This document shows, in pieces, positions 1,312 through 56,968 of a DNA stretch of 64,000 bases. Source of the DNA: Eledone cirrhosa (taxonomy: Eukaryota); contig OZ024741.1 in assembly GCA_964016885.1 (NCBI GenBank), forward strand, positions 283,216,001 to 283,280,000, in the 5' to 3' direction. The first letter of the stretch is position 1, and the number at the start of each line of letters is the position of its first letter. Under the pieces are notes generated by a model. The model was not told the origin of the DNA and did not search any database. It saw only the letters and a list, made by a program, of their open reading frames with translations. The position numbers and the translations under genes are program-made.

Positions 1312-4300
1312 TATCATCATCATCATCATCAACGTTTAACGTCCGTGTTCCACGCTTGCATGGGTTTGGACGAGGGTAGTCCCACTTGAGGCAAGAGTGA
1401 TTGTCTTGCTCGCATAGGACTGTCTGGCAGGTTTTCTACAGTTGGATGCCCTTCCTAACACCAACCACATTTACAGTGTGGGTCTGGGAGGTTTTTACCG
1501 TGTTGCCTACACGGCCACATTACAGCGTGGACTGTGTGTTTTTTTGTCGTGACACCTACACGATCTCATTTGTTTCGGCCTGGATGGCGCGGCACCAACA
1601 TAACTTTACATAGAACGGGGTGGTGTGGATGGGGTGGGGGTGGTGGCGGGACGGGGTGTATTTTGTTAGAGATGCCTACTGGCAAGGCGGGTCTTCTCTG
1701 TTACTGAGTACCGCCAAAGGTCTCGGTCCAGTGACATTGTCTTGGAGAGGTGTAAGTGTGTGAGGTCGGAGTTTATCAGCTCGTCCCAGGTTTTTCTAGG
1801 TCTGCCTATTCCGTGGCTACCGTCTATCTTTATTGCCCTGCACTTTGTTATACAGCTATCGACTTTCATGCGCATCACGTGTCCATACCAACGTAGCCTT
1901 CTCTCGAGTAAACAACATCTGATCCCTCTTATCTCTAATTTTTTCCTTAGTTCGTTTATGCTTTGCCGTTCACGTATATTACTGTTACACATCCAGCGGA
2001 GCATGCAAGCTTCGTTCCTCTCTAGTCTGCGTATATCCTCTGCACACAATGCCCAAGTCTCACTGCCATGCAACATTGCTGTTCGTATGCAGGCATCGTA
2101 CAACCTGCCTTTCATTTTTAGGGAGAACCCTTTAGCAGCTAATAGTGGTATAAGCTCTCTGAACTTTTTCCAACCAGTTCTGACTCTAGCTACAGTACTT
2201 TCAGAGCACCCTCCCCCACTGCTGATTTTATCGCCCAGGTAACGGAAGCTGTCCACTATTTCTATAGAACCCTCTGCGCAATTGAAAGAGCTAGTATTTT
2301 GTGGGCACTTGCTGCTACTTATTGCACCAGAACACCGGCCACATGTAAAATCTATGTTCTTAGTTAGCTTACCTGTGATCCGACTACATCTTTTATCTTT
2401 TATGCACCCATACTTTGCATTTAGGACATAAAATGGAGTTTCTACCTACGCCTTTCCTACACACCGAGCACGACCATTTCCCAGAAGGGACCGCCGCCTT
2501 GTTTTCTTTCCTACAAACTAGAACTTTGGTCTTAGCCAGGTTAATTTTAAGTCCTTTTGACTCTAGGCCGTGCTTCCATGTTTGGAATTTCTTCTCTAGC
2601 TCGGCCATTGATTCCGCTATGAGTGTCAGGTCATCTGCGTATAGGAGTTCCCATGGGCAGCCTGTCTTGAACTCCTCTGTTATAGCCTGAAGGGCAATAA
2701 TAAATAGTAGGGGGCTGAGAACAGAGCCCTGATGGATGCCAACTTTTACGCTAAACTCTTCACTATATTCGTTGTTAATTCTAACCTTGCTGACTGTTTC
2801 TTTATACATGGCTTGTATAGCCCTCACAAGTCATTCGTCAACGCCTAGTTTTCTAAGAGCCCACCAGATAATGGAGCGGGGGACTCTGTCGAAGGCTTTC
2901 TCCAGGTCGACAAAAGCTAAGTAGAGGGGTTTACCTTTAGCTAGGTACTTCTCCTGTAGTTGTCGTACTATGAAAAGAGCGTCTGTGGTGCTTTTGCCTG
3001 ACACAAACCCGAACTGCATTTCATCTAGGTCAATTCTCTCTCTGATTAGTTGCGCTATTACTTTTTCCGTGACCTTCATGACCTGGTCGATTAATTTAAT
3101 GCCTCTATAGTTACTCCTATCTAGGGCGTCTCCTTTACCCTTATAACAGTTAACGATGATGCTGCTATGCCAGTCCTTCGGAACAACCCCATTCTGTACG
3201 ACTTGGTTAACTATGCGGGTGACCATGGTGTGTCCCACCGTGCCAGATGCCTTCAGCATCTCAGCAACTATTTCCGAAGGCCCAGCCGCCTTACCCGTCT
3301 TCATATCCTTGATTGCCTTACTTATTATACTCCCCTCGACTAACACTGCTGGTCCCTCTATTGGGTCGATATGGGGGAGACTGTCTTTCTCCCATTTATT
3401 CTCCTCATTTAGTAGCCTTTCATAGTGACACTTCCAAGCTACCTTCTTATCAGTGTCGGTGATGGCAAGTATGCCATCATCGTTAAGTACACACTTCTCC
3501 CCGACAATATCACGGTTTTCCTTGACGCATTGCCTAGCAATCCTGAACACCTCACGTTTTTGGTCATCGCGTTGTAGAACATGCTTGAACTTTCTTTCCT
3601 CAGCTTCCCTTCTTGCTAAGTACACTTCTCTCCTAGCTTCCCTCCTGGCCACTTGATAGTCTACTCTACTTCCCCCATCCCGCCATACTTTCCAAGCCCG
3701 CTTTTTGGCCTTAATTGACCCCTCCACCTTACTGTTCCACCACCATGTTACTCTCCTCCTGCCTATAGGTCTGCTCCAGCCACAGATTTCATCTGTCGCC
3801 TTCAGCAGGTTAGCTTTCAGGAATTCCCACTGTTCCTCTATATTGAACGACTCTAATTGCTCTTCCTTACTGTCAAAAGCATCAAGTAATATGCTTTTAA
3901 ATTTATTACTGGCTGTGGGGTCCTTTAGCTTCCATATTTTTCTCCTGAGGATAGTCCTCCTCTGTTGTCGAGTACGTCTTGTCCTGACTATGAGGTCGCT
4001 AACTATGAGTCTATGTTGGGAGGTGCATTCTTCATGGGGGAGGGATTTAGTGTTTACAACAGACACTCTGTCACGTCTTCTGGTAAGGATATAATCTATC
4101 TGACTGGTATGTTCCCCTGATCTATAGGTGATCAAGTGATTGTCTCGTTTTTTGAAGTTAGTGTTACAGATAGTTAGGTTATTTGCGTCACAGAATTCCA
4201 GGATTCTGGAGCCTTCCTCATTTCTAGTACCAAACTCATAGCCTCCATGGATTCCGTCGTAGCCGTCACAATGTTGTCCAACGTGACCATTTAGGTCGCC

Positions 4301-4993
4301 TGCAATAATTATATAGTCACTGTCAGATATTTGGGAGGTAGTTAGCAACAGTGTCTCATAGAATCTGTCTTTTATAGTGCCGGGCAGTCCGGATTGGGGT
4401 GCGTACGCAGATATTACTGTCACCATAGTTCTATTGAGGACAAGTCGTATTTTAATTATTCTGTCGTTCACTCTATTTACGTCTATTATCTTATCTGCCC
4501 ACTTTTCTGCTACCATGATTCCTACTCCACCCAGCCCATCGTCGTTTCCCACCCAGAAAAGCTTATAACATCGTTTTTTACCCTCAATGAATTTAGCAGA
4601 CCCACCCCTCCACCTGGTCTCTTGAATACAACAAACATCGACCTCCTTACGTTCAAGCATTTCTACAACCTCGTTAGCGCGACCCTTTAGGGTGCCTACA
4701 TTTATGGTACCAACTCTGAAGTTTTGGATTGCGTTTGGAGGGTGGGGGTGGTGGGGGGCGGGGGGAGATAGGGTTATGTTAGCCATCCGCGGACGAAACA
4801 AAGAGGAGTGCTCGCATTCTCGTCCACGAGGTGAATTTGACTTTAACTTTGGCATTTTCGCTCTGAGCGTCCAGATTTTTCTCTCCCTTCCACTCTCCAG
4901 GATTCCGCAGTCCGTCCATCCATCCATCCATGCATCATATATCGAAGGCAACCGGGCAAGCGATAGTATAGGCCTCTGGCTTATGATTGGTCC
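1312..4993 (-). mobile_element. Near full-length RTE-clade LINE, copy 1 (APE + RT + PHD-like finger)
   Basis: ORF pieces 2831-4951, 2393-2827 and 1666-2256 give APE (NVGTL, QETRW, GDLNGH, QIDYI, SQHRL), RT (FVDLEKAFDRV, QGSVLSPLLF, LLYADD) and the RTE C-terminus (RLRWYGHV, GRPRKTW). One in-frame stop at about 2831 and one frameshift at about 2395. (ATC)n tail at 1312-1330. Confidence 0.95.
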
Positions 4994-7090: not shown

Positions 7091-10000
7091 TGGTCCAATC
7101 ATAATTCAGCAGCTTATTACACAAAACCACCACCTTGGCTATTCACTCCTTAAGTTTAAACCTGGTTGCCTTTGATATGCTAGATGGACTGTGGAATTCT
7201 GGAGGGTATGAAGAATCTGGACACTCAAATGACAATGTCAAAGATAAAGATAAATTCACCTCATGTGGCCGGACGAAAATGCAAGGATTCCTCGTTATTT
7301 CAGATGCGGATGGCAAACATAACCCCATCTCCCTCACCCCGCCCTACACCTCCAACCCATCCCTTCCACCCACCAAACGAAATCCAAAACTTCAGAGTTG
7401 GTACCATGAATGTAGGCACTTTAAAAGGTCACTCTAACGAGGTTGTAGAGATGCTTGAATGTAAGGAAGTTGATGCTTGTTGCGTCCAAGAGTATAAGTG
7501 GAGGGGTGGGTCTGCTAGATTCATTGTGGGTAAAAATGATGCTATAAACTTTTCTGGGTGGAAAATGAAAATGGGCTGGGTGGAGTAGGAATTATATTAG
7601 CAGAAAAATGGGTAGATAAGGTAATTGACATAAATAGAGTGAACGACAGAATAATCAAAATAAGACTTGTCCTAAATAGAACTACTGTGACAATAATATC
7701 CGCTTACGTACCTCAATCTGGACTGCCTGGCATTATAAAAGACAGATTCTATGAGTCACTAATGCTTACTACCTCCCAACTCACCAACAGTGACTACATA
7801 ATTATTGCTGGCGACCTAAATGGTCATGTTGGACAACATTGTGACGGCTATGACGGAATCCATGGAGGCTATGGGTTTGGTACCAGAAATGAGGAAGGCT
7901 TCAGAATCGTGGAATTCTGTGACGCAAATAACCTAATTATCTGAAACACAAACTTTAAAAAATGAGACAATCACTTGATCACCTATAGATTAGGGGAACA
8001 CGCCAGTCAGATAGATTATATCCTTACCAGAAGATGTGACAAAGTGTCTGTTGAAAACACTAAATCCCTCCCCCGCGAAGAATGCACCTCCCAACATAGC
8101 CTCATAGTCAGGACGAGACATACTCGACAACAGAGGAGGACTACCCTGAGAAGAAGAATATGGAAGTTAAAGGACCCCACAAGCAGTAACAAATTTAAAA
8201 GCATATTACTTGATGCTTTTGACAGTAAGGAAGAGCAATTAGAGACGTACAGTATAGAGGAACAGTGGGAATTCCTGAAAGCTAAGCTGCTGAAGGCGGC
8301 AGATGAAGTCTGTGGCTGGAGCAGGTCTATAGGCAGGAGAAGAGTAACATGGTGGTGGAGCAGTAAGGTGGAAGAGTCAATCAAGGCCAAAAAGCAAGCT
8401 TGGAAAGTATGGTGGGATGGGGAAGTAGAAACACTATCAAGTGGCCAGGAGGGAAGCTAGGAGACAAGTGTACCTTGCAAGAAGGGAAGCAGAGGAAAGA
8501 ATGTTCAAGTATGTTCTACAACGCGAGGACCAAAAACGTGAGGTGTTCAAGATTGCTAGACAATATGTCAAGGAAAACCGTGATATTGTTGGGGAGAAGT
8601 GTGTCCATAATGATGATGGTATACTTTGCCATCACTGATACTGATAAGAAGGTAGCTTGGAAGTGTCACTACGAAAGGCTACTAAATGAGGAGAATAAGT
8701 GGGAAAAAGATAGTCTGCCCCAAATCGATCCAATAGAGGGACCAGCAGTGCAAGTTGAAGGTGGTATAATAAGTAAGGCAATCAAAGATATGAAGACAGG
8801 CAAAGCAGCTGGGTCTTCGGAGATAGTTGCTGAAATGCTTAAAGCATCGGGATCGGTGGGACACACTATGGTCACCCGGATAGTAAACCAAGTCATACAG
8901 AATGGGGTCATACCAAATGACTGGCGTAGCAGCATCATCATTAACTGCTACAAGGGTAAAGGAGATGCCCTAGATAGGGGGAACTATAGAGGCATTAAAT
9001 TTATTGACCAGGTCATGAAGGTCACAGAAAAAGTTATAGTGCAACTAATCAGAGAGAAAATTGATCTAGATGAAATGCAGTTCGGGTTTGTGTCAGATAA
9101 AAGTACCACACATGCTCTTTTCCTTGTACGACAACTACAGGAGAAGTACCTAGCTAAAAGTAAACCCCTATACTTAGCTTTTGTTGACTTGGAGAAAGCC
9201 TTTGACAGAGACCCCGCTCCATTATCTGGTGGGCTCTTAGAAAACTAGGTGTTGATGAATGGCTTGTGAGAGCTATACAAGCCATGTATAAAGAAACAGT
9301 CAGCAAGGTTAGAATTAACAACGAATATAGTGAAGAGTTTAGTGTAAAAGTTGGTGTTCATCAGGGCTCCATCCTTAGCCCCTCCTATTTATTATTGCCC
9401 TTCAGGCTATAACAGAGGAGTTCAAGACCGGCTGCCCATGGGAACTTCTATATGCAGATAATCTAATGCTCATAGCTGAATCAATGGCTGAACTAGAGAA
9501 GAAATTCCAAACTTGGAAGCATGGCCTAGAATCAAAAGGCCTTAAAATTAACTTGTCTAAAACTAAAGTTCTAGTATGTAGGAAGGAAAATAGGGCACTG
9601 GTCCCCTCTGGGAAATGGCCATGCTCAGTGTGTAGGAAAGGAGTAGGCAGAAACTCCATTTTATGTCCCAAATGCAAAGTATGGGTGCATAAAAGATGTA
9701 GTGGGATCACAGGTAAACTAACTAAGAACATAGATTTTATATGTGGCTGGTGCTCAGGTGCAATAAGTAGTAGCAAGTGCCCACAGGATACTAGCTCCTT
9801 CCATTGCCCAGATGGTTCTATAGAAATAGTGGACACCTTCTGTTACCTGGGTGACAAAATCGGCAGTGGTGGAGGGTGCTCTGAAAGTACAGTAGCTAGA
9901 GTCAGAACGAGAGGGAAAAAGTTCAGAGAGCTTATACCGCTGTTGGCCACTAAAGGTTTCTCTCTAAAAATGAAAGACAGGCTGTATGATGCCTGCATAC

Positions 10001-10777
10001 GAACAGCAATGCTACATGGCAGTGAGACATGGGCATTGTGTGCAGAGGATCTGCGCAGACTGGAGAGGAATGAAGCTTGCATGCTCCATTAGATGTGTAA
10101 TAGTAATATACGTGAACGGCAAAGCATAAATGAACTAAGTGAGAAATTAGGAATAAGAGGGATCAGATGCTGTTTACTTGAGAGAAGACTACGTTGGTAT
10201 GGTCACGTGATGTGCATGAAAGATGACAGCTATATAAAAAATTGCAGGGCGATCAAAATAGATGGAAGCTAAGGAGTAAGCAGACCCAGAAAAACCTGGG
10301 ACGATTTGATAAATTCTGACCTTACACACTTACACCTCTCCAAGACAATGTCACTGGACCGAGATCTTTGGTGCTACGCAGTAATATAGAAGACCCGCCT
10401 TGCCTAAGTACAAAGCGAAACCTCAGTAGGCACCTCCTAGCCAAAAATACACCCCCATCCCACTACCCCTACCCCACCCACATCTACACCACCCCTTTCT
10501 CTGTAAAGTTATGTTGGTACCACAACATCCAGTCCTAAATAAATGAGGTCGTGTAGATGTCACGACAAAAAAACACACAGTCCACGCTGTAATGTGGCCG
10601 TGTAGGTAACACGGTAAAAACCTCCCAGTCCACACTGTAAATGTGGTTGGTATTAGGAAGGGCATCCAGCCGTAGAAAACCCGCCAGACAGTCCTATACA
10701 AGCAAGACAGCCAATCTTGCCTCACGTGGGACAATTCCCGTCTAAACCCATGCTAGCGTGGAAGATAGATCTTAAAC

Positions 10778-10812
<35 letters not shown>
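7091..10812 (+). mobile_element. Near full-length RTE-clade LINE, copy 2 (same family as copy 1, more decayed)
   Basis: ORF fragments 7184-10092 align with the copy 1 protein; several frameshifts and stops; (GAT)n tail at about 10778-10812. Confidence 0.95.
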
Positions 10813-10813
<1 letters not shown>

Positions 10814-12032
10814 AAATAGAGATGTATAAAAATGTAATTAGAATTTTGATGATGTGCTAAATTTTTAACATAAAGTAGAAACTCTAGTAGTAGAAACTTT
10901 AAAGTAGAAACATTTTTTAATTAATTTATGAAGCATCAGGAAATTTGAAATTTGAAAACACAGTCACCACAATGCAGATAACTATAATAATAGTTGAATA
11001 AATTAGGTAAAGTGCACCTTGAGATGGAAAAAAATAGATCTCTACCATCTTTCAACACAAATGAATATCAAATACCATCTACCACCACATAAACTTAAAT
11101 ACAAACACAAACAAAATACCTTGGGTGGAGAAGGGGTAGCACATAGCCTGCTAGAAATAATAGGCAAGTCTCCTTCAAACCACATCCTTCACATTTACAA
11201 AAAAAGGACTGTTTGGATAATGCGGTTCTGAAAAAGACAGGCTGCTTACTGTTAGGATGTCTTTAATAATAGGTCTGCTCGTGAAGAGCTAGTGAGGGTC
11301 AAACAATACCAATAACAGCATTCCCTATCATGGTTATTGTCTATATAAAGGACTAAACTTACCAACACTAGCTAACAAGTCATTCATCAGTCATACTCGG
11401 TATCCCCTCATTCTTCTTCTTCCATATATTCCCGAGAGGGTCGTGGAGGAAGAGTACTCAAACACTCCTCCCAGCAGCTCCTGTCAGAAGCAACCGTCTC
11501 TAACTGATCAGGCTAGATCCCCAAGCATGACCAGCCAAGCTCATGGATGTTTAGGAAATAGATATCGGTGCACATGCAACATAATATAAAAGACAAAGAG
11601 TACTGGTGAGTGTGAGTGATAAAGTTTTACTTCATAGAAGTCAAAGGTGTATAATGTAAAGGGTTGTTACCCGATGGCAATAATACCATTCTGAAGTTGG
11701 TAGAAAATGTCTTGGCGCTCTAATCTCAGGCTGGTGAGCTGCATGGTGCTTGGTAACAAAAGGGTCGTCCAGCAAGGATCACCAGCTTGAGATTAGAGCG
11801 CCAAGACATTTTCTACCAACTTCAGAATGGTATTATTGCCATCGGGTAACAACCCTTTACATTATACACCTTTGACTTCTATGAAGTAAAACTTTATCAC
11901 TCACACTCACCAGTACTCTTTGTCTTTTATATTATGTTGCATGTGCACCGATATCTATTTCCTAAAGTGGTGACCCCGACGTGATGAACGGCTGCGTGTT
12001 CGTATCACGTCAGGGTTACCAATATAGCGAGG

Positions 12033-14414
12033 CCCCATCTCCACGATTTTGCATCTTCACTGCAGGGGTGTAAGATTTTTTCTAAGCTAGATTTAGTGCG
12101 AGCCTACCACCAAATTCCGGTCAGGAAGGAGGATATTCCGAAAACTGCAATTACAACCCCTTTCGGATCATTCGAATTTTTGACCATGCCTTTCGGACTC
12201 AGGAACGCCGCTAGCACTTTTCAGCGGTTCATAGACGAGGTCACGCGTGGTCTGGACTTCGTCTATGCTTACATAGACGATATTCTCGTCGCTAGTTCCT
12301 CTCCGGAAGAGCATATGCGCCACATGCTTCTCTTACTTCGGCGACTTCAGGATTACCGCGTTCGCGTGAATCCTGCAAAGTGTGTTTTCGGTTCCACTTC
12401 CCTACATTTTTTAGGCCACCTCATCGACGCCGAAGGTATTAGGCCGCTCCCTGAGCGAGTTCAAGCCATACAGGATTTACCTCCGCCTACTACACTTCAC
12501 CAGTTGCGTCACTTCTTAGGCCTAATCAATTTCTATAGGCGTTTCATTCCTCATTGTGCTAATTGGCTATCTTCCCTTACTGACATTTTAAAAAAACGTC
12601 GTAAGAAGAATGAAGACATTTCCTTGACACAAGGACAGCTTCAGGACTTCCAGTCTGCCAAGACAGCCCTCGCTAGTTCTTCTTTGCTAGCCCACCCGGT
12701 ACCAGAGGCCAAGCTTTCGCTTTGTGTTGATGCATCTGATACCGCTGTGGGAGCAGTTTTACAGCAGTCTTACGCTGAAAGCCAACAACCTTTGGCATTT
12801 TTCTCGAGGGAGTTGAAACCAGCAGAAACGCGTTATAGCACGTTTGGGCGGGAATTATTAGCCATATATCTGTCGGTGAAACATTTCTCTCATATCCTTG
12901 AGGGGAGAAATTTTACGGTTTTTACCGACCACAAACCGTTGACCTTTGCTTTGAGGGCCAAAGCCAACAGATATTCGCCCAGAGAGACAAGGCACCTGGA
13001 CTACGTTTCACAATTTACAAACGATATCCAGCACATTGCCGGCTCGCACAACATAGTTGCAGACGCATTATCTCGTTTGCCAATTAGCTCCATCTCGTCA
13101 TCCCAGGACATCGATTTAGGTCGTTTAGCTGCAGACCAACCTGCACTCCAATCGTTGGACACTCTTTCTACCGAATTTGCGACTTGCATTTTCAAATATC
13201 TGCCCTTGTCCACCACCGACAGGCAGATCCTTTGTGATGTATCCACTGATGCACCACGACCACTTGTTCCTGAGACTCACCGTCGAATTGTGTTCCTGGC
13301 TCTGCACAACATTTCTCATCCAGGATCTGCTGCCACAGTTAAACTTATAACAGCCAGATTCTTCTGGCCTAATATGAGGCGAGACATTGCTGTTTTTTGC
13401 CGTTCCTGTATCGCTTGCCAGAAATCGAAGATCCATAGACACATCTGGACTCCACTTGGTACTTTCACCACTCCAGATGCCCGGTTTCAACACATCCACA
13501 TTGACATCGTTGGACCTTGGCCATTCAGCAGTGGATATTCATACATATTGACGTGTGTCGATCGTTTTTCGAGATGGCCTGAAGCCATCCCTTTACAAGA
13601 CATGACTGCTGAGACTGTAGCACGTGCCCTGGTATCAGGGTGGATTACCCGCTTTGGGGTACCAACTACACTCACCACAGACCGCGGTAGACAATTCGAG
13701 TCCCATCTCTTCTCTGAGCTCACAAAAATAATTGGAGCTCAACGGATTCGGACCACAGCCTATCATCCTGCTTCAAATGGAATGGTGGAACGATTCCACC
13801 GCCAATTAAAGGCCGCTCTTCGCGCCTATCCAGACTCTCAACGTTGGAGCGAGTACCTTCCTATTGTGTTATTAGGAATTCGGTCATCAATAAAGGAGGA
13901 CCTTGGGTTCTCCCCGGCCGAATTAATTTACGGTGCTCCTCTAGCGTTGCCTGGGCAAATGCTTGCCCCTGTTGATCTTGCTTTCCAAGATCCGCTTTCC
14001 TACGTATCCCGTCTGCGTTCTTATTTACAGGACCTGCCGCCGATGGATACGAGGAAGCAAACTGTAAAACATGCGGTCCCGAGGGACATTGCCTCGTGGA
14101 CCCATGTGTTCGTAAGGAACGATGCTGTGAGACCACCCCTCACACAACCATACTCTGGACCCTACCGTGTGTTAGAACGCACTGACAAACATTTCACTGT
14201 AGAGGTTAAGGGGTCCAGAGAGACAATTTCGGTGGATAGACTGAAAAGGGCACACAATGACGCTCGTACACCCGAGCCACAAATACCCCAATCTTTCACC
14301 ATTGTGCATACACCTGCTCCTTCTGCCCCACCTTCACCTACATACAAGACTACGACCCGTTCCGGTCGGAGAGTCCACTGGCCCAAAAAGTTCTGCCAAA
14401 CTATTTTTATATGA
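12033..14414 (+). CDS. pol: 5'-truncated Gypsy pol (RT-RNase H-integrase), frame otherwise open; gag, protease and start codon absent
   Basis: [24 protein letters not shown]; RNase H DAS/RELLA/TDHKPL; integrase HHCC, D-D-E (HIDIVG, TDRG, ERFHR), GPY and a C-terminal TRSGR typical of CsRn1-like elements. The frame extends upstream of the GTG at 12096 to the junction at 12033. Confidence 0.95.
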
Positions 14415-14811
14415 ACTGGCCATTGGAGCCTTATATATATATATATATATATATATAGATTTTTTTTTTTTGCTGTTCTTATTTATTTGATTTATTGTAT
14501 TGCAATGTACCTCTCATGACCATTTCACTGGATGTATATATATGTTTTTCGTTTCCTTTACAATGAACATTTTAAGCTATATTCTTCTCTTTGCCGGTTT
14601 ATAAGTTTGCAATGTAAATTTACCGTTGATAACCGCGCATTTATTGGGAATGCTTATTTCTCTGGTCGCTGGCCTCTTGACCCTTCCAGGTCAACGCATT
14701 CTCAACATCGACCATCAACTTCGGCTGCTATTTCTAGCACTTTGCGCAACTCATTTTTTCTAAAAAAATTTTTTTTACTGTGAATTTAAACACCGAATAC
14801 GCTCACTCAGC

Positions 14812-15041
14812 GAGGCAGCAACAGCAATACAGCAACACAGCAGCAACAGCAATACAGCAGCAACAGCAACAGCAATACAGCAGCAACAGCAATGCAGCAG
14901 CAACAGCAATACAGCAGCAGCAGCAACAGCAATACAGCAGCAACAGCAATACAGCAGCAACAGCAATACAGCAGCAACAGCAATACAGCAGCAACAGCAA
15001 TGCAGCAGCAACAGCAATACAGCAGCAACAGCAACAGCAAC
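14812..15041. repeat. Compound (CAG/CAA/TAC) microsatellite in the Gypsy 3' UTR
   Basis: Repeated agcaacagcaatacagc units between the pol stop and the PPT. Confidence 0.9.
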
Positions 15042-15357
15042 CAAAGCCAGAGAATTTACTTTTGCAGCACTCTTCCTGTGAGAAAATCCATTCGGAGGTT
15101 GGAAATTCACGATATACCACAGAACAGAGACCACCTGCATTCATTCTCTGGAACACACTTTCTTTCCTGCGGTCATGTGATTGCACACCTGTGAACTATA
15201 TTTTGTACATTTGAACTTTGAGCCCTTCCCTTACTTTACTACCTTGATATCTATCATTGATTTTTCCAAACATTCTTTTGTCGTAATTTTCATGCCTGTT
15301 ACAACATTCTCGTCAACTTGCTACATATTTTCATTTCGATTTTTATACACTAAAATT

Positions 15358-15371
15358 CTGGCGGGAGGTTA
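15358..15371 (+). other. Polypurine tract of the Gypsy element
   Basis: ctggcgggaggtta lies immediately before TGTAGCG and parallels the PPT of the second LTR element (ctgggtagggaactaa). Confidence 0.75.
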
Positions 15372-15740
15372 TGTAGCGGTTGTCTCCCTTGTTTTGATTA
15401 GGATCTAGACGGGAAGTGGAACCCTTTCTGCAACTTCCGGTCAGAGCCCTATAAAACTAACAACTTTAAGCTTCCTCTATCTCTTTGCCTTTTCGGCACC
15501 AGGTCAAGAGCCTCACATTTGGCTCTGCCATTAATTTGGCCAACAGGCGCCTGGCCTTAGCCAGGCGTCCTCTGCCAGCCGCGTTTGCCTGGCAATCAAA
15601 ACGGTAACTACTAACTTTGCTTCATTCTAACATCTATTCCTATTGACATGTCAACTATAAAATCTACCGTTAATTAAATATTATACACACAAACCATGTC
15701 TCGTTTTGTTACATACATACAACCCAGTAACCTCGCTATA
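15372..15740 (+). repeat. LTR family 1 (369 bp); exact inverted copy at 16270-16638
   Basis: Starts TGTAGCG and ends CGCTATA (terminal inverted repeat); TATA-like ctataaaa at about 15449; preceded by the PPT and followed by a tRNA-Trp complement. Confidence 0.9.
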
Positions 15741-15741
15741 T

Positions 15742-15795
15742 TGGTAACCCTGACGTGATACGAACACGCAGCCGTTCATCACGTCGGGGTCACCA
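15742..15795. other. Head-to-head junction of two tRNA-Trp(CCA) 3'-end copies including CCA; also at 11968-12021 and 16215-16268
   Basis: TGGTAACCCTGACGTGAT-A-CGAACACGCAGCC (antisense to about tRNA nt 76-45) is joined to GTTC-ATCACGTCGGGGTCACCA. TGGTGACCCCGACGTGAT is the canonical tRNA-Trp PBS. Confidence 0.85.
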
Positions 15796-16981
15796 CTTTA
15801 GGAAATAGATATCGGTGCACATGCAACATAATATAAAAGACAAAGAGTACTGGTGAGTGTGAGTGATAAAGTTTTACTTCATAGAAGTCAAAGGTGTATA
15901 ATGTAAAGGGTTGTTACCCGATGGCAATAATACCATTCTGAAGTTGGTAGAAAATGTCTTGGCGCTCTAATCTCAAGCTGGTGAGCTGCATGGTGCTTGG
16001 TAACAAAAGGGTCGTCCAGCAAGGATCACCAGCTTGAGATTAGAGCGCCAAGACATTTTCTACCAACTTCAGAATGGTATTATTGCCATCGGGTAACAAC
16101 CCTTTACATTATACACCTTTGACTTCTATGAAGTAAAACTTTATCACTCACACTCACCAGTACTCTTTGTCTTTTATATTATGTTGCATGTGCACCGATA
16201 TCTATTTCCTAAAGTGGTGACCCCGACGTGATGAACGGCTGCGTGTTCGTATCACGTCAGGGTTACCAATATAGCGAGGTTACTGGGTTGTATGTATGTA
16301 ACAAAACGAGACATGGTTTGTGTGTATAATATTTAATTAACGGTAGATTTTATAGTTGACATGTCAATAGGAATAGATGTTAGAATGAAGCAAAGTTAGT
16401 AGTTACCGTTTTGATTGCCAGGCAAACGCGGCTGGCAGAGGACGCCTGGCTAAGGCCAGGCGCCTGTTGGCCAAATTAATGGCAGAGCCAAATGTGAGGC
16501 TCTTGACCTGGTGCCGAAAAGGCAAAGAGATAGAGGAAGCTTAAAGTTGTTAGTTTTATAGGGCTCTGACCGGAAGTTGCAGAAAGGGTTCCACTTCCCG
16601 TCTAGATCCTAATCAAAACAAGGGAGACAACCGCTACAGATGTTATCCAACCACCTTGCTCGGGGTCTACATCTGGGTTTCTTGCCAGTTAGTTTTGCCC
16701 ATAATATCTGTCCAACGATTCTTTTCTGAGACATTCTAGCTACATGCCCATAGTATCAGAGCCGTGCTCTCTCAATTCAGAGAAGTAGCAGCTCTACCTG
16801 GAGTGACTCTCTGGTCCCTGAGCTATGCACTTTATCGAGTCATGTTACTCCAAAGACCCTTCGGAGGAATCCCATTTCAGCCGCTTGTATTTGCAGTCGT
16901 ATTCTTTCAGTCATTACCCAAGATTCATGACCATAGTAAATCTAGCTGGATGAACTTGGCTAGAAATACAATAATGAAAAG

Positions 16982-17222: not shown

Positions 17223-17826
17223 GGTGTCATTGTCATAGAAACAGCACAGCATGGATACTTCAGCAATTAGACCACTAGGAGTCTCTACATACATCAGTGT
17301 TGAGTTATCAAGGGAGCCTCTATGTGGCCACTCTTTGCTTGCCAAAAATAACAGCTAAATTCTTTCAAATGTCATACACTCTACCTTCTTAAAACAGGAA
17401 GAATACATTAATCAGTCTCCACAAATTCCAATTGAATCAAATAATAATTAATTATTTGACCATAGAATTAAAAAGATTAAAAAAGAGCAGCTGTACTAAG
17501 TTTCCTCCAAAGTGTCTTTGGAATAATGTGACTTGATAGAGTGTGTAGCTCGGAGATCAGAAAGTCACTCCAAATAGAGTCACTACTTGAGAGACCACAG
17601 CTCTGATACTATGGGCATGTGGTTAGAATGTCTCAGGAAATTTTATAGGCAATATCAGCCAGCAAGAGACCCAGAGGTAGATCCCAAACGTGATAGCTGG
17701 ATAACATCCATCAGCTTAAAAGCATTTTCATCATCCCATAATTGTCTTCTTTCTCTTCCTCCTTTTTATTGCACTCATTGTACTTAACAGATTATGTACT
17801 CGGTAACTTCAGTCCTTTTCCCAATG

Positions 17827-23113: not shown

Positions 23114-25261
23114 TTAACAAGAATTTTCAATTGAGCCATATTTGCATTTAGCAGTGGCTGGTTTTGGTTGACTAATGCAACAACATCGACTGGTCTGTTG
23201 ATTGAGAAGTGTGATGACTTGTTGTTGCTTAAAGTAAAACCAGACAATTAGAGAAAGAGACAAGCTAAGCACAAGTACAGCTAAGGAGTAGTAAAATACA
23301 TGAGAAGGTAACTGACTTTCCGAGGTCACACGAAGTGTGAATTCCAAGATGCAAAACTGTGGAAATATTGTAGCTAAAGCCATAATGTTGGCAGCTGACA
23401 AATGTACCTTTTTGTGAACATAGGACTTCTTGTGAATGAAATACAGGTTGTAACGATCAACACAATATTTGAGTATCATATAGAGACAACCAAATACTGA
23501 AATGATTGGGCAGAGGATGCTGTAGGTGATGACCACAGAGAATAAGCAGAGAAGATATGCATACTGCTGACCAAAGTCAAATTCAACAATGTCATATTTT
23601 CGAAATGCTCTTCTCTTAGCAACTGAACGGATTGTCACATAACGGTACAGGAGTGTAATTAATTCAGAAATTCTTAGGAGTTCAAGACCAGTTCCTGTCA
23701 GTGCTGAAAGTACAACATAGTTCACAAAAAAAACATTATTCGCCATTGTGAAAATGCACTGTATTTTCTTTGTCAAACTTTTTACAGATATCAAAAGTTC
23801 AAATGCTGTTAGGCCCAGTGATGGTAAGATAACCACTGTAAATAAAAGTGTCATGAATAAAGCTATCATGTTTTTTTTCTGTTGAGAACTTTTAGTCCAG
23901 CTCTTTAGGAATGCAACTGTATCTTTTACACATATTGGTAGTAGGTAGACTGTAATTTTGATCAGATAACTTGGTATAATGACAAACAAAAAGGAATTTG
24001 TCCCATTAATCTTTTCCAAATAAGAGGTAACAAGTGCTGGGCTTGTCACAATTAAACAGATGAAAAACAAAATAACTACAGCTAATACTGTTCTTATAAA
24101 TTTAGAGGAACGTGAGATTGACATATTTTGCCAGATAATATCCTCTTTAGTTGGAGCATAACTCACTAACCATTTTTTGGTGTTGAGTGCAGTACTGAAT
24201 TCTGATGTCATTATATGACGTCTGCACTTGGGAAATGTGTGAAAAGAAGAATATATAGACTCTGCTTCTTCCTCTGAAGCTATTTTCACAAATACCATCC
24301 TTAGTGGCTTTTTTTTAAGTTGGTTCATTTCCATGGCTCTCTCTGATAAAATAGTTTCCTCTGCTTCATCAAAATTATGGATATGGTCATTATTACTAAA
24401 GCATGAACTTACATTTTCTGATTCTTGGGAGGCTTCTGTATTTAAACCATTTTTGCAATGTTCTTTCATATGGCGAATGAGTTGAAGTTTCTCATCCAAT
24501 TTCAAGACTTTTCTGGTGTCATACACAGGTACTATCTTTTGAATAACAACACTTGGATATACCTTATTCAAATGATTTTCAATCAATTTATCAAAGTTTC
24601 CAACTAGGTGAATATTACTTATTATTAGGGTCTTTGATTTATTACTTGTCCATAAATGTTGTGAGAAACGAAGAAACAGGGATATGGTAGCTAGTAAATA
24701 CAACAGGGAAACTGTGACATGTAGCCACAGAAGATTTGAGTGAACATTAGCTATGGTTGTACTGCTCAGGCTGCTGGATGTACTGGATTGTCCCCCTATG
24801 TAATTAACAGGTAAGATTATCACAATAGTGAGGAATACTATGAAGAAAAGGTAGCCGATTAAATACCTTTGGAAATGTAAATAAGTCATAGCATCAGCTC
24901 CACATTTTTCTGTGATATCGCTGTCAGTGAGTCGCAGGAAAGCTCGGAACCAGGAAGTAAATTGATCAGTTTGGCGGAGATGCTCAGGAAATGAAGTATC
25001 AGTTGCTGTTGATTCACCACTCAACTGCAAGTCATTGAGAGATGATAAATCTGTCAGAGGTTTAGATTGGGGGATGTTACATGAAATGTCATATTGACGA
25101 TAATTCTTAATTAGTTTTGGTATGAGTGAAAATATTATCAAACAAGCAATCCAAATAACGGAATTCAAAGCAAAATTAAAAGCAATAGAATTATTAACAG
25201 TTTCACTACTTGTACTGTTGTCACAGTTGGACATATTTCCATTAAATGATACAGTCCACAT
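23114..25261 (-). CDS. TMEM63: TMEM63/OSCA (CSC1-like) mechanosensitive cation channel, single coding exon, 715 aa
   Basis: Uninterrupted ATG-to-stop ORF with about 11 hydrophobic segments and family motifs KCGADAMTYLHFQRYL, LPVNY, LLWLH, YAPTKEDIIWQNM, FFVNYVV...GLELLRI, EFDFGQQYA, CPIISVFG and KYCVDRYNLYF. Confidence 0.93.
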   Translation of the reverse strand: MWTVSFNGNMSNCDNSTSSETVNNSIAFNFALNSVIWIACLIIFSLIPKLIKNYRQYDISCNIPQSKPLTDLSSLNDLQLSGESTATDTSFPEHLRQTDQFTSWFRAFLRLTDSDITEKCGADAMTYLHFQRYLIGYLFFIVFLTIVIILPVNYIGGQSSTSSSLSSTTIANVHSNLLWLHVTVSLLYLLATISLFLRFSQHLWTSNKSKTLIISNIHLVGNFDKLIENHLNKVYPSVVIQKIVPVYDTRKVLKLDEKLQLIRHMKEHCKNGLNTEASQESENVSSCFSNNDHIHNFDEAEETILSERAMEMNQLKKKPLRMVFVKIASEEEAESIYSSFHTFPKCRRHIMTSEFSTALNTKKWLVSYAPTKEDIIWQNMSISRSSKFIRTVLAVVILFFICLIVTSPALVTSYLEKINGTNSFLFVIIPSYLIKITVYLLPICVKDTVAFLKSWTKSSQQKKNMIALFMTLLFTVVILPSLGLTAFELLISVKSLTKKIQCIFTMANNVFFVNYVVLSALTGTGLELLRISELITLLYRYVTIRSVAKRRAFRKYDIVEFDFGQQYAYLLCLFSVVITYSILCPIISVFGCLYMILKYCVDRYNLYFIHKKSYVHKKVHLSAANIMALATIFPQFCILEFTLRVTSESQLPSHVFYYSLAVLVLSLSLSLIVWFYFKQQQVITLLNQQTSRCCCISQPKPATAKCKYGSIENSC

Positions 25262-26212
25262 TGTATTTACTGGTGATATCTGTGCAGTTGGCCGAGACAG
25301 AAACGTTCATTCCAAGCTTTTCTTAGTATGATTACAATATTTCTTCAGGATTCTGCTGAGATTTAATATAATAATAGTTTAACTTTCTTTTCTGCTTTCA
25401 AATAACAACAGTGACATTATGTAAACTTTGTATTATAAAACATAATAGATTAGACATGTGATAAAAAGTAAAAGGTTCAGAACTGTGCGACTTAGATTAT
25501 AATAATAATCAGCATGTAATAGAGGTGTGTTGACATCCAGCAGCAGCAGCAGTAGTAGTAGTAGTAGATTTAAGAGATTTCAGCCATACCAATCAGATAC
25601 AATTTTATCTTAAAACAATTAAAGCAAAGTACATATCTATTTGTGAATTTCAATATTAGTCACACATATATTTCGATAGTAAAGTTAATTTCAGCATAGT
25701 AGTGACACTTTTACATTAAGCTAAATCTTTTTGATACCAAATAGCTTGAAACCTAAGGAATGAAAACAGGAGGGGCATAGAGAGAGTGTAGTGAGGGTGA
25801 GGATAGCTGTTAGGGAGTGCTAGTGAAAGGTGAATGGCTGAGGTGAATAGGAGTGAAGATAGTAGCTACTAGGGTGCAATAGTGAGGGTATTTAAGGGCT
25901 TTTGAGGGGGAAGCAGCTAAAGAGTGAATGCTGGAGGAGTCATGGGTGATGGTGAAGATAGCTGCTAGGGAGTATTAATGGAAGCAGGAGTGGACACAGG
26001 GATAAGTCAAATCACATTGTACAGTGTTGGCTGAGTCTTCACCAGCAAAGCATAGCGCCAATCCGCATGGTCCTGTCATTTGTGGCTCTTCCACAGTTTC
26101 CAGCCACTATGGTTTCTCTGTAATTTTTATGCAGCTACTATCTTCCTTATGCAAAGTCTCTATCAGTACTAGTAAAGCCAAGTAATACAAGAAAACTTCA
26201 ATCATATCTAGT

Positions 26213-31084: not shown

Positions 31085-33595
31085 TCCCGGCTCAAGAAAT
31101 GAAGAAGGAGTGAGACTTCTTGAATTTTGTGATGCAAGTACACTGACTATTTGCAACACTAACTTCCAGACACCTGCCAACCACCTAATAACCTACAAAT
31201 CAGGCGAGCACATAAGCCAGATTGGCTTCTTACTAGTTAGGCAGCGGGACAGGCAGATGGTGTCAAATACCAAGGCATACCCAGGGGAAGAATGTACCCC
31301 CACAGCATAGGTTAGTCATTAGTGATATCTCAGTAAGCAAGAGATGGAATGAGACATACAGGAAGGTGTGGAGAAGAAAGGTCAAGGAAGCTAAAAGACC
31401 TTTCACTAAAATACAAATTTAGGAAAGCCCTTCAAGATGTATATGACGAAAAAGAAGACGATTTAGAGTCATATGACAGATAATAACTGGAATTTCTTAC
31501 GTGACAACTTCCTGCAGGCTACTGATGAAACTTGTGGCTGGAGCAGAGCTCCAACCAGACAGAGAGTGACCTGGTGGTGGAACAGCACAGTAGATAGGGC
31601 CTTTAGAGACAAAAGACTATCATGGAAGCTTGGAAAAAGGGTGGGAGTAGAGAAGGATATACAGCCGCTAAGAGAGAAGCTAGACGTCAGGTGTACTTAG
31701 CACGCAGGGAGGCTGAGAGTAGGAGGTTTGCCAATGTTCTGCGACGGGAAGATCAGAGGCGTGCGGTGTTCCACATTGCAAGGCAGTGTGTCAATGCAAA
31801 TCAGGATGTTGTTGGAGATAAATGTGTCACGAATGATCAGAAAAAGGAGGCCTGGAAATGTCATTATGAGAGACTGATGAATGTGGAGAATGAATGGGAG
31901 AGAGAGATTACCCTCAGTAGATCCGACAGAGGAACCAGCTATTGAGATTGATGAATATAGGGTCCAAGAGGCGATTAAGGAAATGAAAAATGGTAAGGCT
32001 GCTGGACCATCGGGGATAGTTGCTGAGATGCTGAAGGCATCAGGGATCGTAGGCACTAAACTGATTGCACGCATCATCAATGAGGTTATATATGGTGGTG
32101 TCATACCCAAAGACTGGTGCAGCAGTATTCTCATAAATTGCTACAAAGATAAAGGGGATGCTCTGGAGAGGAGCAATTATAGGGGTATAAAACTGATGGA
32201 TCAGGTTATGAAAGTGGCAGAAAGGATATTAACACAATTAATTAGAGAAAGGATCAAAATAGATGAGATGCAATTTGGTTTTGTGCCTGGGAAAAGTACA
32301 ACAGATGCCCTCTTCTTGGTGAGACAATTACAAGAGAGGTTCTTAGAGGCCTTTGATAGAGTACCCCAATCTGTCATCTGGTGGTCCCTAAGGAAACTAG
32401 GTGTTGAGGAATGGCTTGTGAGGACAGTGCAAACTTTGTACAGAGGTGCTGTCAGTAAAGTCAGGGTAGGAATGGAGTTTAGTGAGGAATTCCAGATACA
32501 AGTAGGAGTACATCAAGGTTCGGTCCTCAGCCTGCTCTTGTTCATTATAGTCCTCCAAGCCATAACAGAAGAGTTTAAGAGTGGCTGTCCATGGGAAATT
32601 CTCTATGCTGATGATCTGGTTCTTATAGCAGAATCAGTAGAGGAGCTAGAGAAACAGCAGAGAAACAGCTATGGAAACAGCAGTTGGAAGCAAGAGAACT
32701 GAGAGTGAACCTAACTAAGACAAAAGTGTTGATGAGTAGAAAAGAGGACAAAACTCTGATTCCATCAGGGAAATGGCCATGTTCGATATGCAGAAAAAGA
32801 ACTGGCATAAATTCTATAAAATGCACACAATGCAGATCCTGGGTACATAAGAGATGTAATGGGATAGCAGGCAAACTAACAGGTAAGGAGAAATATGTAT
32901 ACAGTAGATGTACAGGGAAATTAGACAGTAGAAGTCGCATTGATAGACACATTTTTCCAATGCAGGCGGGTGCTATAGAAGTGATGAATAGCTTCCGGTA
33001 CCTAGGAGATCAGATTAGCATGTGTTCCGAGGCCATAGTATCTAGAATAAGGACGGGTTGGAAGAAGTTTAGGGAGCTGCTTGCTCTGCTGACTAAGAAG
33101 GGTTTCTCCCTGCGTACGAAAGGCCGGTTATATGATGCCTGTGTGAGGAGCGCAATGCTACATGGTAGTGAGACATGGGCAGCAACTACAGAGGATATGC
33201 GATGGCTGGAGAGAAATGAGGCAAGCATGCTCCGTTGGATGTGCAATGTCAATGTGCATGAACGACCCAGCATGGATGTGTTAAGAGAGGAACTGTGTCT
33301 GAGAGGGATAGAACGTAGTGTGCGAGAGAGGAGACTGCGGTGGTATGGACATGTAATGCGCATAGAGGATGATCGATAGGTGAAGAAGTGCCAGGAAATG
33401 CCAGTTGAAGGAAGACGTGGTAGAGGTAGACCACAAAAAACATGAGCGGAGGTGGTGAAAACAGACCTCAGATCGCTGAAGCCCACTGTGGAGATGACGA
33501 AGGACCGTGACAAGTGGAGAGATGCTGTGCTGAATAAGACCTGTCCCACCCTTGCAAGCAGGGAAAAGCAGACGTAAAATGATGATGATGATGAT
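31085..33595 (+). mobile_element. 5'-truncated RTE-clade LINE (different subfamily)
   Basis: ORF fragments 30933-33379 contain the APE end, RT (QGSVLS, LYADD) and a PHD-like finger; (GAT)n tail at about 33579-33595. Confidence 0.92.
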
Positions 33596-50947: not shown

Positions 50948-53900
50948 GATTTCTTTATTGGCCACAAGGGCTGACATCAAGAAAAACATTACAGACGGCA
51001 CAGGACGGTACAGGACGGTACGATGTGGGTTTTGTGCGTGTAAAGATTTTTATTATTTATATAAGAAAAGAAAAAAAAGAGATAGAAACATATATATATA
51101 TATAAACAATAAAAATGAAAATTGAAACAATGAAAAATTCCCCAATAGGGGGAAAACCTCCGAGGGTTACTCGTGGCGAAAACCACACAAAAGACCACGG
51201 CCACCCTGACCACCAGGGCAAGCGCCCTCTCTCAATTTTTCCATTTCTCAAACTACAGACGTATATTCAGAGCGGTCCCGTTCATTCGGACCATTCTCGC
51301 TACATTCACCCACCTTTCAACAAACTTGCTAGAAGGCAGCACTTGCCTCTCCACCCTTATTTTCCTCTTCAAGTGAAACTTGAAAAAGTTAATTAGGGAT
51401 TCGCTGAAGAGGAAAGCGTCTGTCTTTAACCCTTTCAACCTTGTCCACCACACAATCTCTTTCGCCATGGCCACCAGGCAGATGAAAACTGCCTGCCCTT
51501 CCTCCTCGAAGGAAGACGGCTAGACCATCTGCACAATGGACTCAGTCGATAACCGGATCAGTCCTACACGCGACAGCAACTGTTCGACATAGCTCCACAA
51601 GTCAGCAATGCTCGGACACTGAACGAGTGCGTGCACGACGGTTTCGTCGCTCTGCGCACATCTCGGACAGGTTCGACTGACGGCACTTCCGTGTCTGTAG
51701 AGCTTATCTCGAACCGGCAACGCTCCCCGGTAGCACTGCCAGGCCAGGGATTTTTGGAAGTTATCCATAGGCCCTGGGCTGAAAATTCTCCGGAAGAGAG
51801 CAAACAACTGATCTCTCCGAGAACGTCCTCGCCCTTCCCCTCCACTAGTCCTCTATAGAACGCCGAGGTGGATGTTTCACCGATACAGGTGCCCAGCTGG
51901 CAGAGGGCAGTGAGCGCCTGGAGACATTCCAGTTTCCAAGCGCTATCCCTTGGTCTTTTCCTGACCCAGGACTGCAGCTCTGTCAAGGAGATGAGCTGTG
52001 GGAAAACGTGCCTGGCGAACGGCGACCACACCTGTTCACCGTCAAGGAAGCACCAGAGATGTCGCAGCCTCAGCGCATGTTTGCGCATCTTCAGCCATGA
52101 CATGCCCAGTCCTCCACGCAACGGGTGTTGACAGCAGATGGATCGTCTGACCATGGGAGCGCGTCCCTTCCACAAAAAGCGGAGAGTTGGGCCGGGACAA
52201 GGGACGACGGTGAGGCGGTAGCAGATGACGGATGCGATGTACGCATTCGCCACCCCTGCTCAGCCTTTCAGTGACAGCTTCCTCTCGGCCCATTTCTGGG
52301 TGAGGGAGGCCACCTTGCTCGTCACTTCGCTCCAGTTTTTCTCCATCTGGAAGTCCGGTCCGAACCAGACCCCGAGCAATTTAAGCCGTCCGTCCAACGC
52401 CCCACGACGTGGTCGGACGGCATGGACATACCTCTCCAGGTGCCGAGCTGCAAGCCCACCGACTTTTCCTGGTTTATCTTTGCGCCTGTCACCGCTTCGT
52501 ATTCCTTGAGAGCGGTGCCGAGCATCTGGACGTGTCTGGTGCTCGACACCACACTACGGTGACGTCGTCGGCGTAAGCCGACTCGGATTTCCCGCATCCT
52601 AATTCGCGTGGGACGCCCCTCATCGCCCTCAGTTTGTGCAGTAACGGCTCGAGAGCCAATACGTACAAGAGGGACGAGAGGGAACAACCCTGGCGGATCT
52701 AGCGCATGATGCTGAACGGCTGCGACAGGTGACCGTTGACCCTCACAACTGAGCAGATGTCGCTGTACATCGCAGCGATCAAACCCCTGAAAACGGGCCC
52801 GAAACCGGCTGCCTCGAGGACCACCGCCAGGTACCGATGGTCGACCCTATCGAATGCTTTGGATTGATCCAAGTCGATCAGGGCCCCACCCGTGCCAGGT
52901 TCCTTAACCATCTTCTCTATGATGTATCGCATGAGGTGGAGGTTGTCGTGTATGGATCTGTCCGGAATGGCGCATGTCAGCGCCTCTCCCACCAGACCCT
53001 TGACGACAAGCGCCAACCTCGTTGCTAACACCTTGGCCAAAATCTTGTACTCTGCGTTTAGCAGAGTTATGGGCCTGAAGTTATCGATAACATCCCCCTT
53101 GTTAGGGTCTTTTCTTAGCAGCGCCACCGCTCCCCGGCTCACAAAACTGGGAATGCTCCCGTTCTGCTGCCAATTGCAGTAGACGTCTGCCAAGAGGTCA
53201 CCGAACAAGTCTGGCATAAATGCATAAAGCTCGTAGGGAAGACCATCCAAACCTGGCGATTTACCCCTCGTGCAGTTAGCCATCGCTTCCCGTATTTCAC
53301 CGGTTGTTATTGGCTTTTCGCAACACTGTGCTGCGGTCGTCGAGAGCCGAGGCAGTCCGTCGAGGTATGCACTGAAATCCATACCCTGATCCGGCCCGCC
53401 GCTGCTCCCGAACAGTTCAGCAAAGTGCTACTGAAAAGCTTCACACATCTGCTCGAGTTCGAGCAACACGCGCCCGTTTTGGTCAAATAAAGACCGAATT
53501 GTGGCTTTGTTGCCACGTCGCGCCTCTGCCACCCAGGCCCATTGGACGGCTTTTGTCCCCTCGTGTTTCAGAGCACGCGCTCTAGCTCTGACAACGCAGC
53601 CTTCGTGTTTTGCGTTGAAGAATTGGTCGAGTGCCAATCTCGCCGCAAGCACGTCGGTTGCGATGCCTGTCCTGAACGCCTCTTCTAGCTTTCTGACTAG
53701 CTCTCCCTCTACTCTATTTTCCTCTATCACTAGTCCTTTGCTAAACCTAATCGACTCTACTTTAATTGCCCTTTTCAGGTCGAACCACCACCTGTTGTTG
53801 ACGACCGCTCCCGTCAATGCCCGCTTAACTAATACGCTAATCCGGTCTCTGTAGGCTTTGCGCGCCGGGAAAGACGCGTTCAGCTTCCAGTAACCGGGCT

Positions 53901-56931: not shown

Positions 56932-56968
56932 TAATAATAATAATAATAATAAAAATAATAATAATAAT

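Follow-up and report, generated by a model that had tools for sequence, protein, structure and literature searches.

The 54 nt at 15742..15795 form a junction within a rearranged retrotransposon insertion in the window, by which we mean the whole 64,000-nt stretch of Eledone cirrhosa DNA that was analysed. The insertion (11550-16638) is one unit with GATG on either side as a 4-bp TSD, and it is built from two CsRn1-type families, referred to here as family 1 and family 2. Its parts are as follows:

11546..11549, no strand: left TSD, GATG; at 17486-17708 a paralogue of the interrupted host repeat has a single GATG at the insertion point
11550..11966, plus strand: family-2 LTR fold-back (3' part), 237 nt antisense and then a self-copy
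11968..11985, plus strand: 18-nt exact complement of tRNA-Trp 76-59 (copy 1), likely primer-copied
11986..12032, minus strand: family-1 leader (GTTC and the 32-mer) and the last 11 nt of the family-1 LTR (LTR1), antisense
12033..14414, plus strand: family-2 pol fragment with an open frame, comprising RT (5' part absent), RNase H and integrase
14415..15371, plus strand: 3' untranslated region common to families 1 and 2, ending in the PPT, with a CAG-rich array at 14798-15047
15372..15740, plus strand: family-1 LTR (TGT...ATA)
15742..15773, plus strand: inherited family-1 extended PBS, 32 nt against tRNA-Trp 76-45, with A at position 19 and family-type letters at positions 5 and 10
15774..15780, plus strand: family-1 leader GTTCATC, of which ATC (15778-15780) is common with the opposing PBS and forms the junction microhomology
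15778..15795, minus strand: 18-nt exact complement of tRNA-Trp (copy 2)
15797..16213, plus strand: second copy of the family-2 LTR fold-back, with identical arms
16215..16268, plus strand: third junction copy
16270..16638, minus strand: family-1 LTR, inverted, its U3 end being the right end of the insertion
16639..16642, no strand: right TSD, GATG

The first fold-back consists of two arms (11550-11737 and 11779-11966) around a 41-nt loop and has the U5 end of family 2 at its left; the native stem of the family-2 LTR (LTR2) beneath it has a predicted folding energy of -11.5 kcal/mol. The G at 11729 is the native letter, and the right arm carries the letter of the stem. The pol fragment is 97% identical to L121, a family-2 copy of intact structure. 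No microhomology was found where U5 meets pol (12032/12033), and no read or contig among the pieces listed spans this point. The last 133 nt of the 3' untranslated region are of the family-1 type. The head-to-head junction is present three times in the window (11968-12021, 15742-15795 and 16215-16268), with the copies sitting in a direct repeat of 483 nt, whose units differ at one base (11729 versus 15976), and in a perfect inverted repeat of 613 nt, and the three are copies of one event inside the 5.09-kb insertion. Elsewhere in the window, a non-LTR element that has RT and endonuclease domains is present twice in inverted orientation (1313-4755 and 7356-10798, 86-93%), and further non-LTR remnants lie at 31881-32702, 53428-54645 and 56968-57810. 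On the minus strand at 23114-25306, one open frame encodes 730 aa and all three channel domains of the RSN1/TMEM63 type, and is either an intronless gene or a retrocopy. ARAGORN found no tRNA gene in the 64,000-nt window.

Family 2 is autonomous and about 6 kb long, with an LTR of 431 nt (measured in L121) that ends in TGT...AAA. Family 1 is high-copy and non-autonomous, with an LTR of 369 nt ending in TGT...ATA, about 1.75 kb between the LTRs and a 3' region common with family 2. The pol of the insertion has the Ty3/gypsy order of RT, RNase H and integrase, and the PBS for tRNA-Trp, the 4-bp TSD and the LTR ends are those of the CsRn1 clade. The CX2HX9CX3C Gag motif is present in the family-2 copies L121 and L172, the window copy having no gag. 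Judged by these sequence features, families 1 and 2 appear to match the CsRn1 clade of Ty3/gypsy.

The first-pass annotation had read the 54 nt as two cDNA ends that each recorded read-through of m1A58 in the primer, one by a mismatch and the other by a 2-nt jump. The letters themselves were described correctly: 15742-15773 matches, in antisense, the 32 nt at the 3' end of the host tRNA-Trp, CCA included, with three differences (positions 5, 10 and 19); base 15760, at position 19 of the 32-mer and opposite A58, is A; and the other strand of 15778-15795 reads an exact 18-nt PBS and then GAAC. The check on host genes that it had asked for showed that A58 is gene-encoded, being present in 61 of 64 tRNA-Trp pattern matches, and these matches stand far above chance, reversed-pattern controls having given 0. 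Two of the three other matches (L053 and L117) carry CCA and adjoin an LTR-like end, and the third is a gene-like copy with A57 and T58, which is unlike family 1 and disagrees with the G57 of the window. A tandem array of dozens of tRNA-Trp genes lies at G000:C4:353.39-353.49 Mb and includes one gene-like copy with T58. An isodecoder, suggested earlier as a source of the two acceptor-stem differences, was rejected among the 20 of 64 matches read in their gene context: none had both letters, and one had the position-67 letter alone.

The 32-mer did not prove to be a singular feature. A 24-nt pattern with position 19 left free gave 582 matches, and 29 of the first 30 fetched carried the family-1 leader. 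With a 33-nt pattern, position 19 was A in 484 matches and G in 6, with no T or C, and position 25 (an A), used as a control, showed no variation. The 32-mer with A19 is thus the normal leader of family 1 and no lesion made at 15742..15795. GTTC directly follows the 32-mer in 27 of the 30 fetched leaders, and GAAC, the supposed skip of A58 and G57, is its reverse complement. Intact family-2 leaders continue after the PBS with A/T-rich sequence and no GAAC. The first-pass annotation fails on two of the refutations that it had itself named. Because the 32-mer with A19 is family-wide and GTTC is part of the leader, both "lesions" are family-1 sequence, which leaves no place for two independent cDNA ends differing in their lesions. 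It had also been argued that no PBS is expected behind an LTR that follows a PPT; the order PPT, LTR1 and normal leader was seen in 10 distinct cases among the fetched loci, and PPT-LTR-32-mer is common in tandem copies. Nothing at 15742..15795 points to more than 18 nt having been copied from tRNA in this event, the 32-mer being family-wide with the family letters at 5 and 10. What survives of the proposed tRNA-derived cDNA end is the 18-nt arm, which looks like a true copy of the tRNA and likely records the normal stop, and read-through of m1A58, while not seen here, was found at other loci. Long tRNA matches behind an LTR need a family check before they are called one-off fossils.

Within family 1 the A at position 19 was fixed in an ancestor. 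The commonest family-1 PBS has two mismatches, with a minority being tRNA-perfect or half-converted: by hand count, 79 of the first 100 listed PBSs had both family letters, only 10 were tRNA-type and 11 were mixed. Behind its first PBS, family 1 carries the LTR end and PBS a second time, stacked, and GTTC appears to belong to this duplicate. Two family-1 copies (L199 and L040) extend at their 3' end past the 32-mer as far as the second of the stacked LTR-end motifs, which would fit priming from the second PBS, and L199 has two 32-mers in tandem. Sense-direction chimeras of families 1 and 2 are frequent. In L074, L079, L084 and L093, the PBS behind a family-2 LTR switches at microhomologies of 2-3 nt to pol or to family-1 sequence, still in the sense direction; such faulty second-strand transfers are frequent. 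Ongoing overwriting of position 19 was considered and set aside: 6 G against 0 changes at position 25 is suggestive, but T is absent, and three of the six keep the letters at 5 and 10.

The junction recurs in the genome. An exact 22-nt pattern gave 10 matches, three in the window and seven at six other loci, and a variant (L107) was found at a seventh other locus, which lies 41 kb from L106, so that these two may not be independent. When a free gap of 0-28 nt was allowed, all nine matches had one register and all had GAAC. The partners differ, being LTR2 (L106, L107 and L108), LTR1 (L109 and L111) or other LTR ends (L110 and L112); the LTR1 sides differ by 5-15% among junction loci, and the architectures differ too. 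TSDs of 4 bp flank the outer LTR ends in the window and at five of the seven other loci, those other than L110 and L112. All 18-nt arms are tRNA-type (with one change in one copy), also behind LTR1 (L109 and L111). For LTR2 partners the 18-mer is the family's own genomic PBS, so the window itself does not show a fresh copy. Among 21 ATC sites in one family-1 element, ATCGC...GGTCACC is the best predicted pairing site of the 18-mer (-16.0 kcal/mol), and the observed register is that of this best predicted duplex, with energies calculated by RNA parameters. From the register, the tRNA-type 18-nt arms and the best duplex, we infer that an 18-nt end stopped at m1A58 was misprimed on the patch in the leader.

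We therefore read the 54 nt as a junction in a rearranged insertion of two tRNA-Trp-primed Ty3/gypsy families with a 4-bp TSD, in which the 32-mer and GTTC are inherited family-1 leader and the 18-mer facing them was likely copied afresh from the primer up to the normal stop at m1A58 and then likely misprimed on the complementary patch just behind the 32-mer; we give this reading a probability of about 0.8. That the main plus-strand strong stop after 18 nt needs m1A58 is established for retroviral RT in the accessible text of PMC8599865, and here the methyl group itself would be presumed. The event may have begun when family-2 minus-strand strong-stop DNA folded back on the native LTR stem and copied itself into the attached tRNA for 18 nt; a G-T wobble at the priming end would account for the single base by which the arms differ. 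One locus (L124), in which an LTR2 fold-back and PBS are followed by the normal family-1 leader with a 4-bp TSD, corresponds to this step alone and a normal transfer to family 1. The 3' end would then have paired with ATCGC...GGTCACC of a presumably co-packaged family-1 template and copied the leader and LTR1 backwards. The U3 end would come from PPT priming, the perfect palindrome from a second fold-back and the direct repeat from one non-homologous jump, this being one of several possible orders, and integrase would finally have acted on the U5 end of family 2 and the U3 end of family 1. A mispriming hot spot that is defined by sequence and gives integrated inverted chimeras time and again would be a concrete and testable route for LTR-element rearrangement.

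Other origins of the junction are far less probable. Had it instead formed in already integrated DNA, through recombination between neighbouring copies or through template switching between them during replication, the common tandem and nested copies would have offered partners, and perfect palindromes can form in chromosomal DNA. Against this stand the new 4-bp TSDs at the outer ends of the rearranged units in six of eight loci, the tRNA-type 18-mers behind LTR1 and the break at exactly 18 nt in one register, and we regard such an origin as improbable. An assembly or library chimera has a slimmer chance still. The 613-nt arms are 100% identical and the locus-specific junction was not seen in the sequencing runs examined, as a chimera would have it; the TSD has an empty-site paralogue, however, the two window copies of the 41-nt loop differ at one stem position, and the same junction occurs at other loci with TSDs of their own. 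Read support is thin: one contig of run X1 also runs across the head-to-head junction and agrees with it at every letter, but its unique letters number 27 and 25 to either side, fewer than the 31 that the mapping rule asks for. This contig is possibly from the assembled individual, and the locus itself rests on the assembly. Least probable of all is that two independent read-through ends were joined here: the letters fit, and read-through copies with changes at 58 exist at other loci, yet the 32-mer has the family-1 letters at 5 and 10, unlike a fresh tRNA copy, A19 recurs in 484 other matches, GTTC is leader sequence and GAAC is present in all nine junction matches.

Read-through copies were sought genome-wide with CCA-bearing tRNA-Trp patterns of at least 37 nt, which gave 17 and 32 matches and, with one gene removed, 31 loci. 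These are copies of 37-49 nt at LTR-like ends, most of them ending near G37: 27 of the 31 end at tRNA positions 35-40, four at 28-29 and none at 30-34, position 40 being the search floor. By their upstream sides they form 14 groups; most of the downstream sides are unique, and paired LTRs or pol were confirmed for a few only. The over-long primer copies are likely true read-through products; anticodon-loop cleavage would also give ends near G37. A58 was read correctly in 27 of the 31 copies. Position 58 is changed in the other four, all by transversion, versus 20 changes (5 transversions) in 961 other sites, a count that omits positions 57 and 47, which vary among genes. When the five family-4 copies are left out, 58 is changed in 2 of 26 versus 19 changes (5 transversions) in 806 (p = 0.14 for any change and 0.018 for transversions). 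These results suggest a modest excess of changes at position 58, and misincorporation by RT at m1A is documented in the text available of PMC4787781. Two candidates were excluded as independent m1A errors: L117 (A57, T58), which was left uncounted as ambiguous since the gene-like copy has the same two letters, and the two A19 long copies of family 4, which belong to one older clade, where A19 is found in the remaining members too, and were dropped from the stricter count.

G37, which we take to be methylated in tRNA-Trp, is changed in two of the four longest copies, and L126 is changed at 58 and 37 only. L126/L188 and L117 are fold-back palindromes centred on a long tRNA-Trp copy, L117 turning on the anticodon stem. 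At G000:C1:74761475 and C1:303498698, an 18-nt PBS is followed by one extra G and the T-loop complement, a 1-nt insertion opposite 58 seen in 2 of the first 100 listed. In a further abundant family (about 24 of the first 100 listed, counted by hand) the 18-nt PBS is directly followed by GAA, a match too short at three letters to be distinguished from chance.

Complementarity past the PBS is also found in other families, amounting to 32 nt in family 1 and in autonomous families and to a split 11 + 12 nt in family 4. Six autonomous gypsy copies (L114 and L167-L171) have the 32-nt PBS match with T at position 19, shortly before a likely gag start, with variants that would keep G-U pairs. Family 4 is autonomous, and its split leader has 11 nt against tRNA-Trp 76-66 and 12 nt against 48-37 (93 matches); a minority of its copies (L198 and L200-L241 represent the family) carry a perfect 39-40-nt tRNA copy in place of the split PBS. 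Extra tRNA sequence was found in 12 family-4 copies, of which six stop at 18 nt, one stops at 15 nt and five run 39-40 nt. Two of the long copies nest among native copies in a flank tree (34 rows, L213 left out), one of them (L200) being 98.8% like a native copy, and these two are likely fresh overwrites that completed transposition. Over-extended strong-stop DNA may complete transfer in family 4, where 40-nt copies are nested among native leaders; in family 1 no T19 overwrite was found among 490, which speaks against generalising. That family 1 might be related to family 4 or to the T19 families was rejected, only the PBS region being alignable.

For the origin of A19 we lean, by a small measure, towards ancestral read-through with misincorporation, which means that the family-1 letter may be an ancestral fossil and was not made at this locus. 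A weaker candidate, which we still take seriously, is that the 32-mer is a functional long PBS or over-extension site under selection, in which position 19 drifted as the one position unable to pair with m1A58, so that the A would be no RT error. The autonomous families that keep 32 nt to the same tRNA position with T19, and whose variants at 25 and 29 would still allow G-U pairing, are in line with such selection, as are both ends of the 40-nt match kept by family 4 and the short over-extension sequence that lentiviruses keep, as described in the accessible part of PMC13191261. It accounts less well for the A opposite 58 in two unrelated families (1 and 4) and for the changes at 58 and 37 in one-off read-through copies. 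Chance is an unlikely source of A19. Selection on pairing and a read-through origin of the 32-mer do not exclude each other.

On a more tentative level, and with less confidence than we place in read-through as the source of A19, CsRn1-type tRNA-Trp-primed elements in this genome might regularly read past m1A58 to about G37, some families keeping over-extension leaders that are long (32 nt, or 40 nt spanned by a split 11 + 12 nt) and would let such DNA finish transposition. The family-1 leader might then be both a frozen read-through with an m1A error and a trap that turns 18-nt ends into head-to-head chimeras. If true, tRNA modification states of the germ line would be archived in the genome in datable form. 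Where plus-strand synthesis halts on its primer is known from retroviruses in vitro and from cell lines; the integrated copies described here add a germ-line record, spanning many families, of the 18-nt stop and of another near position 37. We consider this wider picture of long leaders and ends near G37, which rests on small counts, more interesting than the junction locus.

Among known systems, the CsRn1 clade (CsRn1, PwRn1 and AgCR; PMC2582038) has, in the text accessible to us, the same tRNA-Trp PBS, 4-bp TSD, LTR ends and CHCC Gag motif, with a GPY motif in integrase; its PBS is given as about 12 nt, and that text mentions no 32- or 40-nt match, non-autonomous partner or head-to-head chimeras. 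Nowhere in the literature covered, which leaves out most older subscription papers, did we find head-to-head mispriming or PBS matches of 32-40 nt described for retrotransposons. Retroviral strong-stop synthesis, as presented in the available portions of PMC8599865 and PMC13191261, has its main stop after 18 nt and minor stops further in, including position 37, as here. Lentiviral primer over-extension bears a likeness to the long leaders, since the genome is complementary to the primer past the PBS and over-extended DNA can transfer, and the family-4 leader resembles the lentiviral sequence and is longer (PMC13191261). The lentiviral over-extension reaches only about position 55-54, and its position-37 product is said there to be unusable, whereas the leaders described here reach 45 or 37 and 40-nt copies have integrated within elements that are normal in other respects. 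Mouse ETn, MusD and IAP elements have mismatched PBSs with reversion to the tRNA sequence, which is like the spread of family-1 PBSs; in the part of that paper available (PMC7472051), PBS changes and modified positions within the 18 nt do not match. Ty1 and Ty3 are said there not to inherit the primer copy, whereas the Ty3/gypsy families described here appear to do so. The Helenus TRIMs (PMC10886601) are, like family 1, non-autonomous LTR elements with tRNA-like sequence; as the accessible text has it, that sequence lies inside the LTR as a promoter, whereas here it is antisense, at the PBS and with CCA. Finally, the bipartite PBS of yeast Ty1 and Ty3, as reported in the available text of PMC5371799, consists of two separated primer-complementary blocks like those of family 4, the difference being that the second block of family 4 faces tRNA 48-37 and keeps register with the first, which is what decay of a continuous copy would leave.
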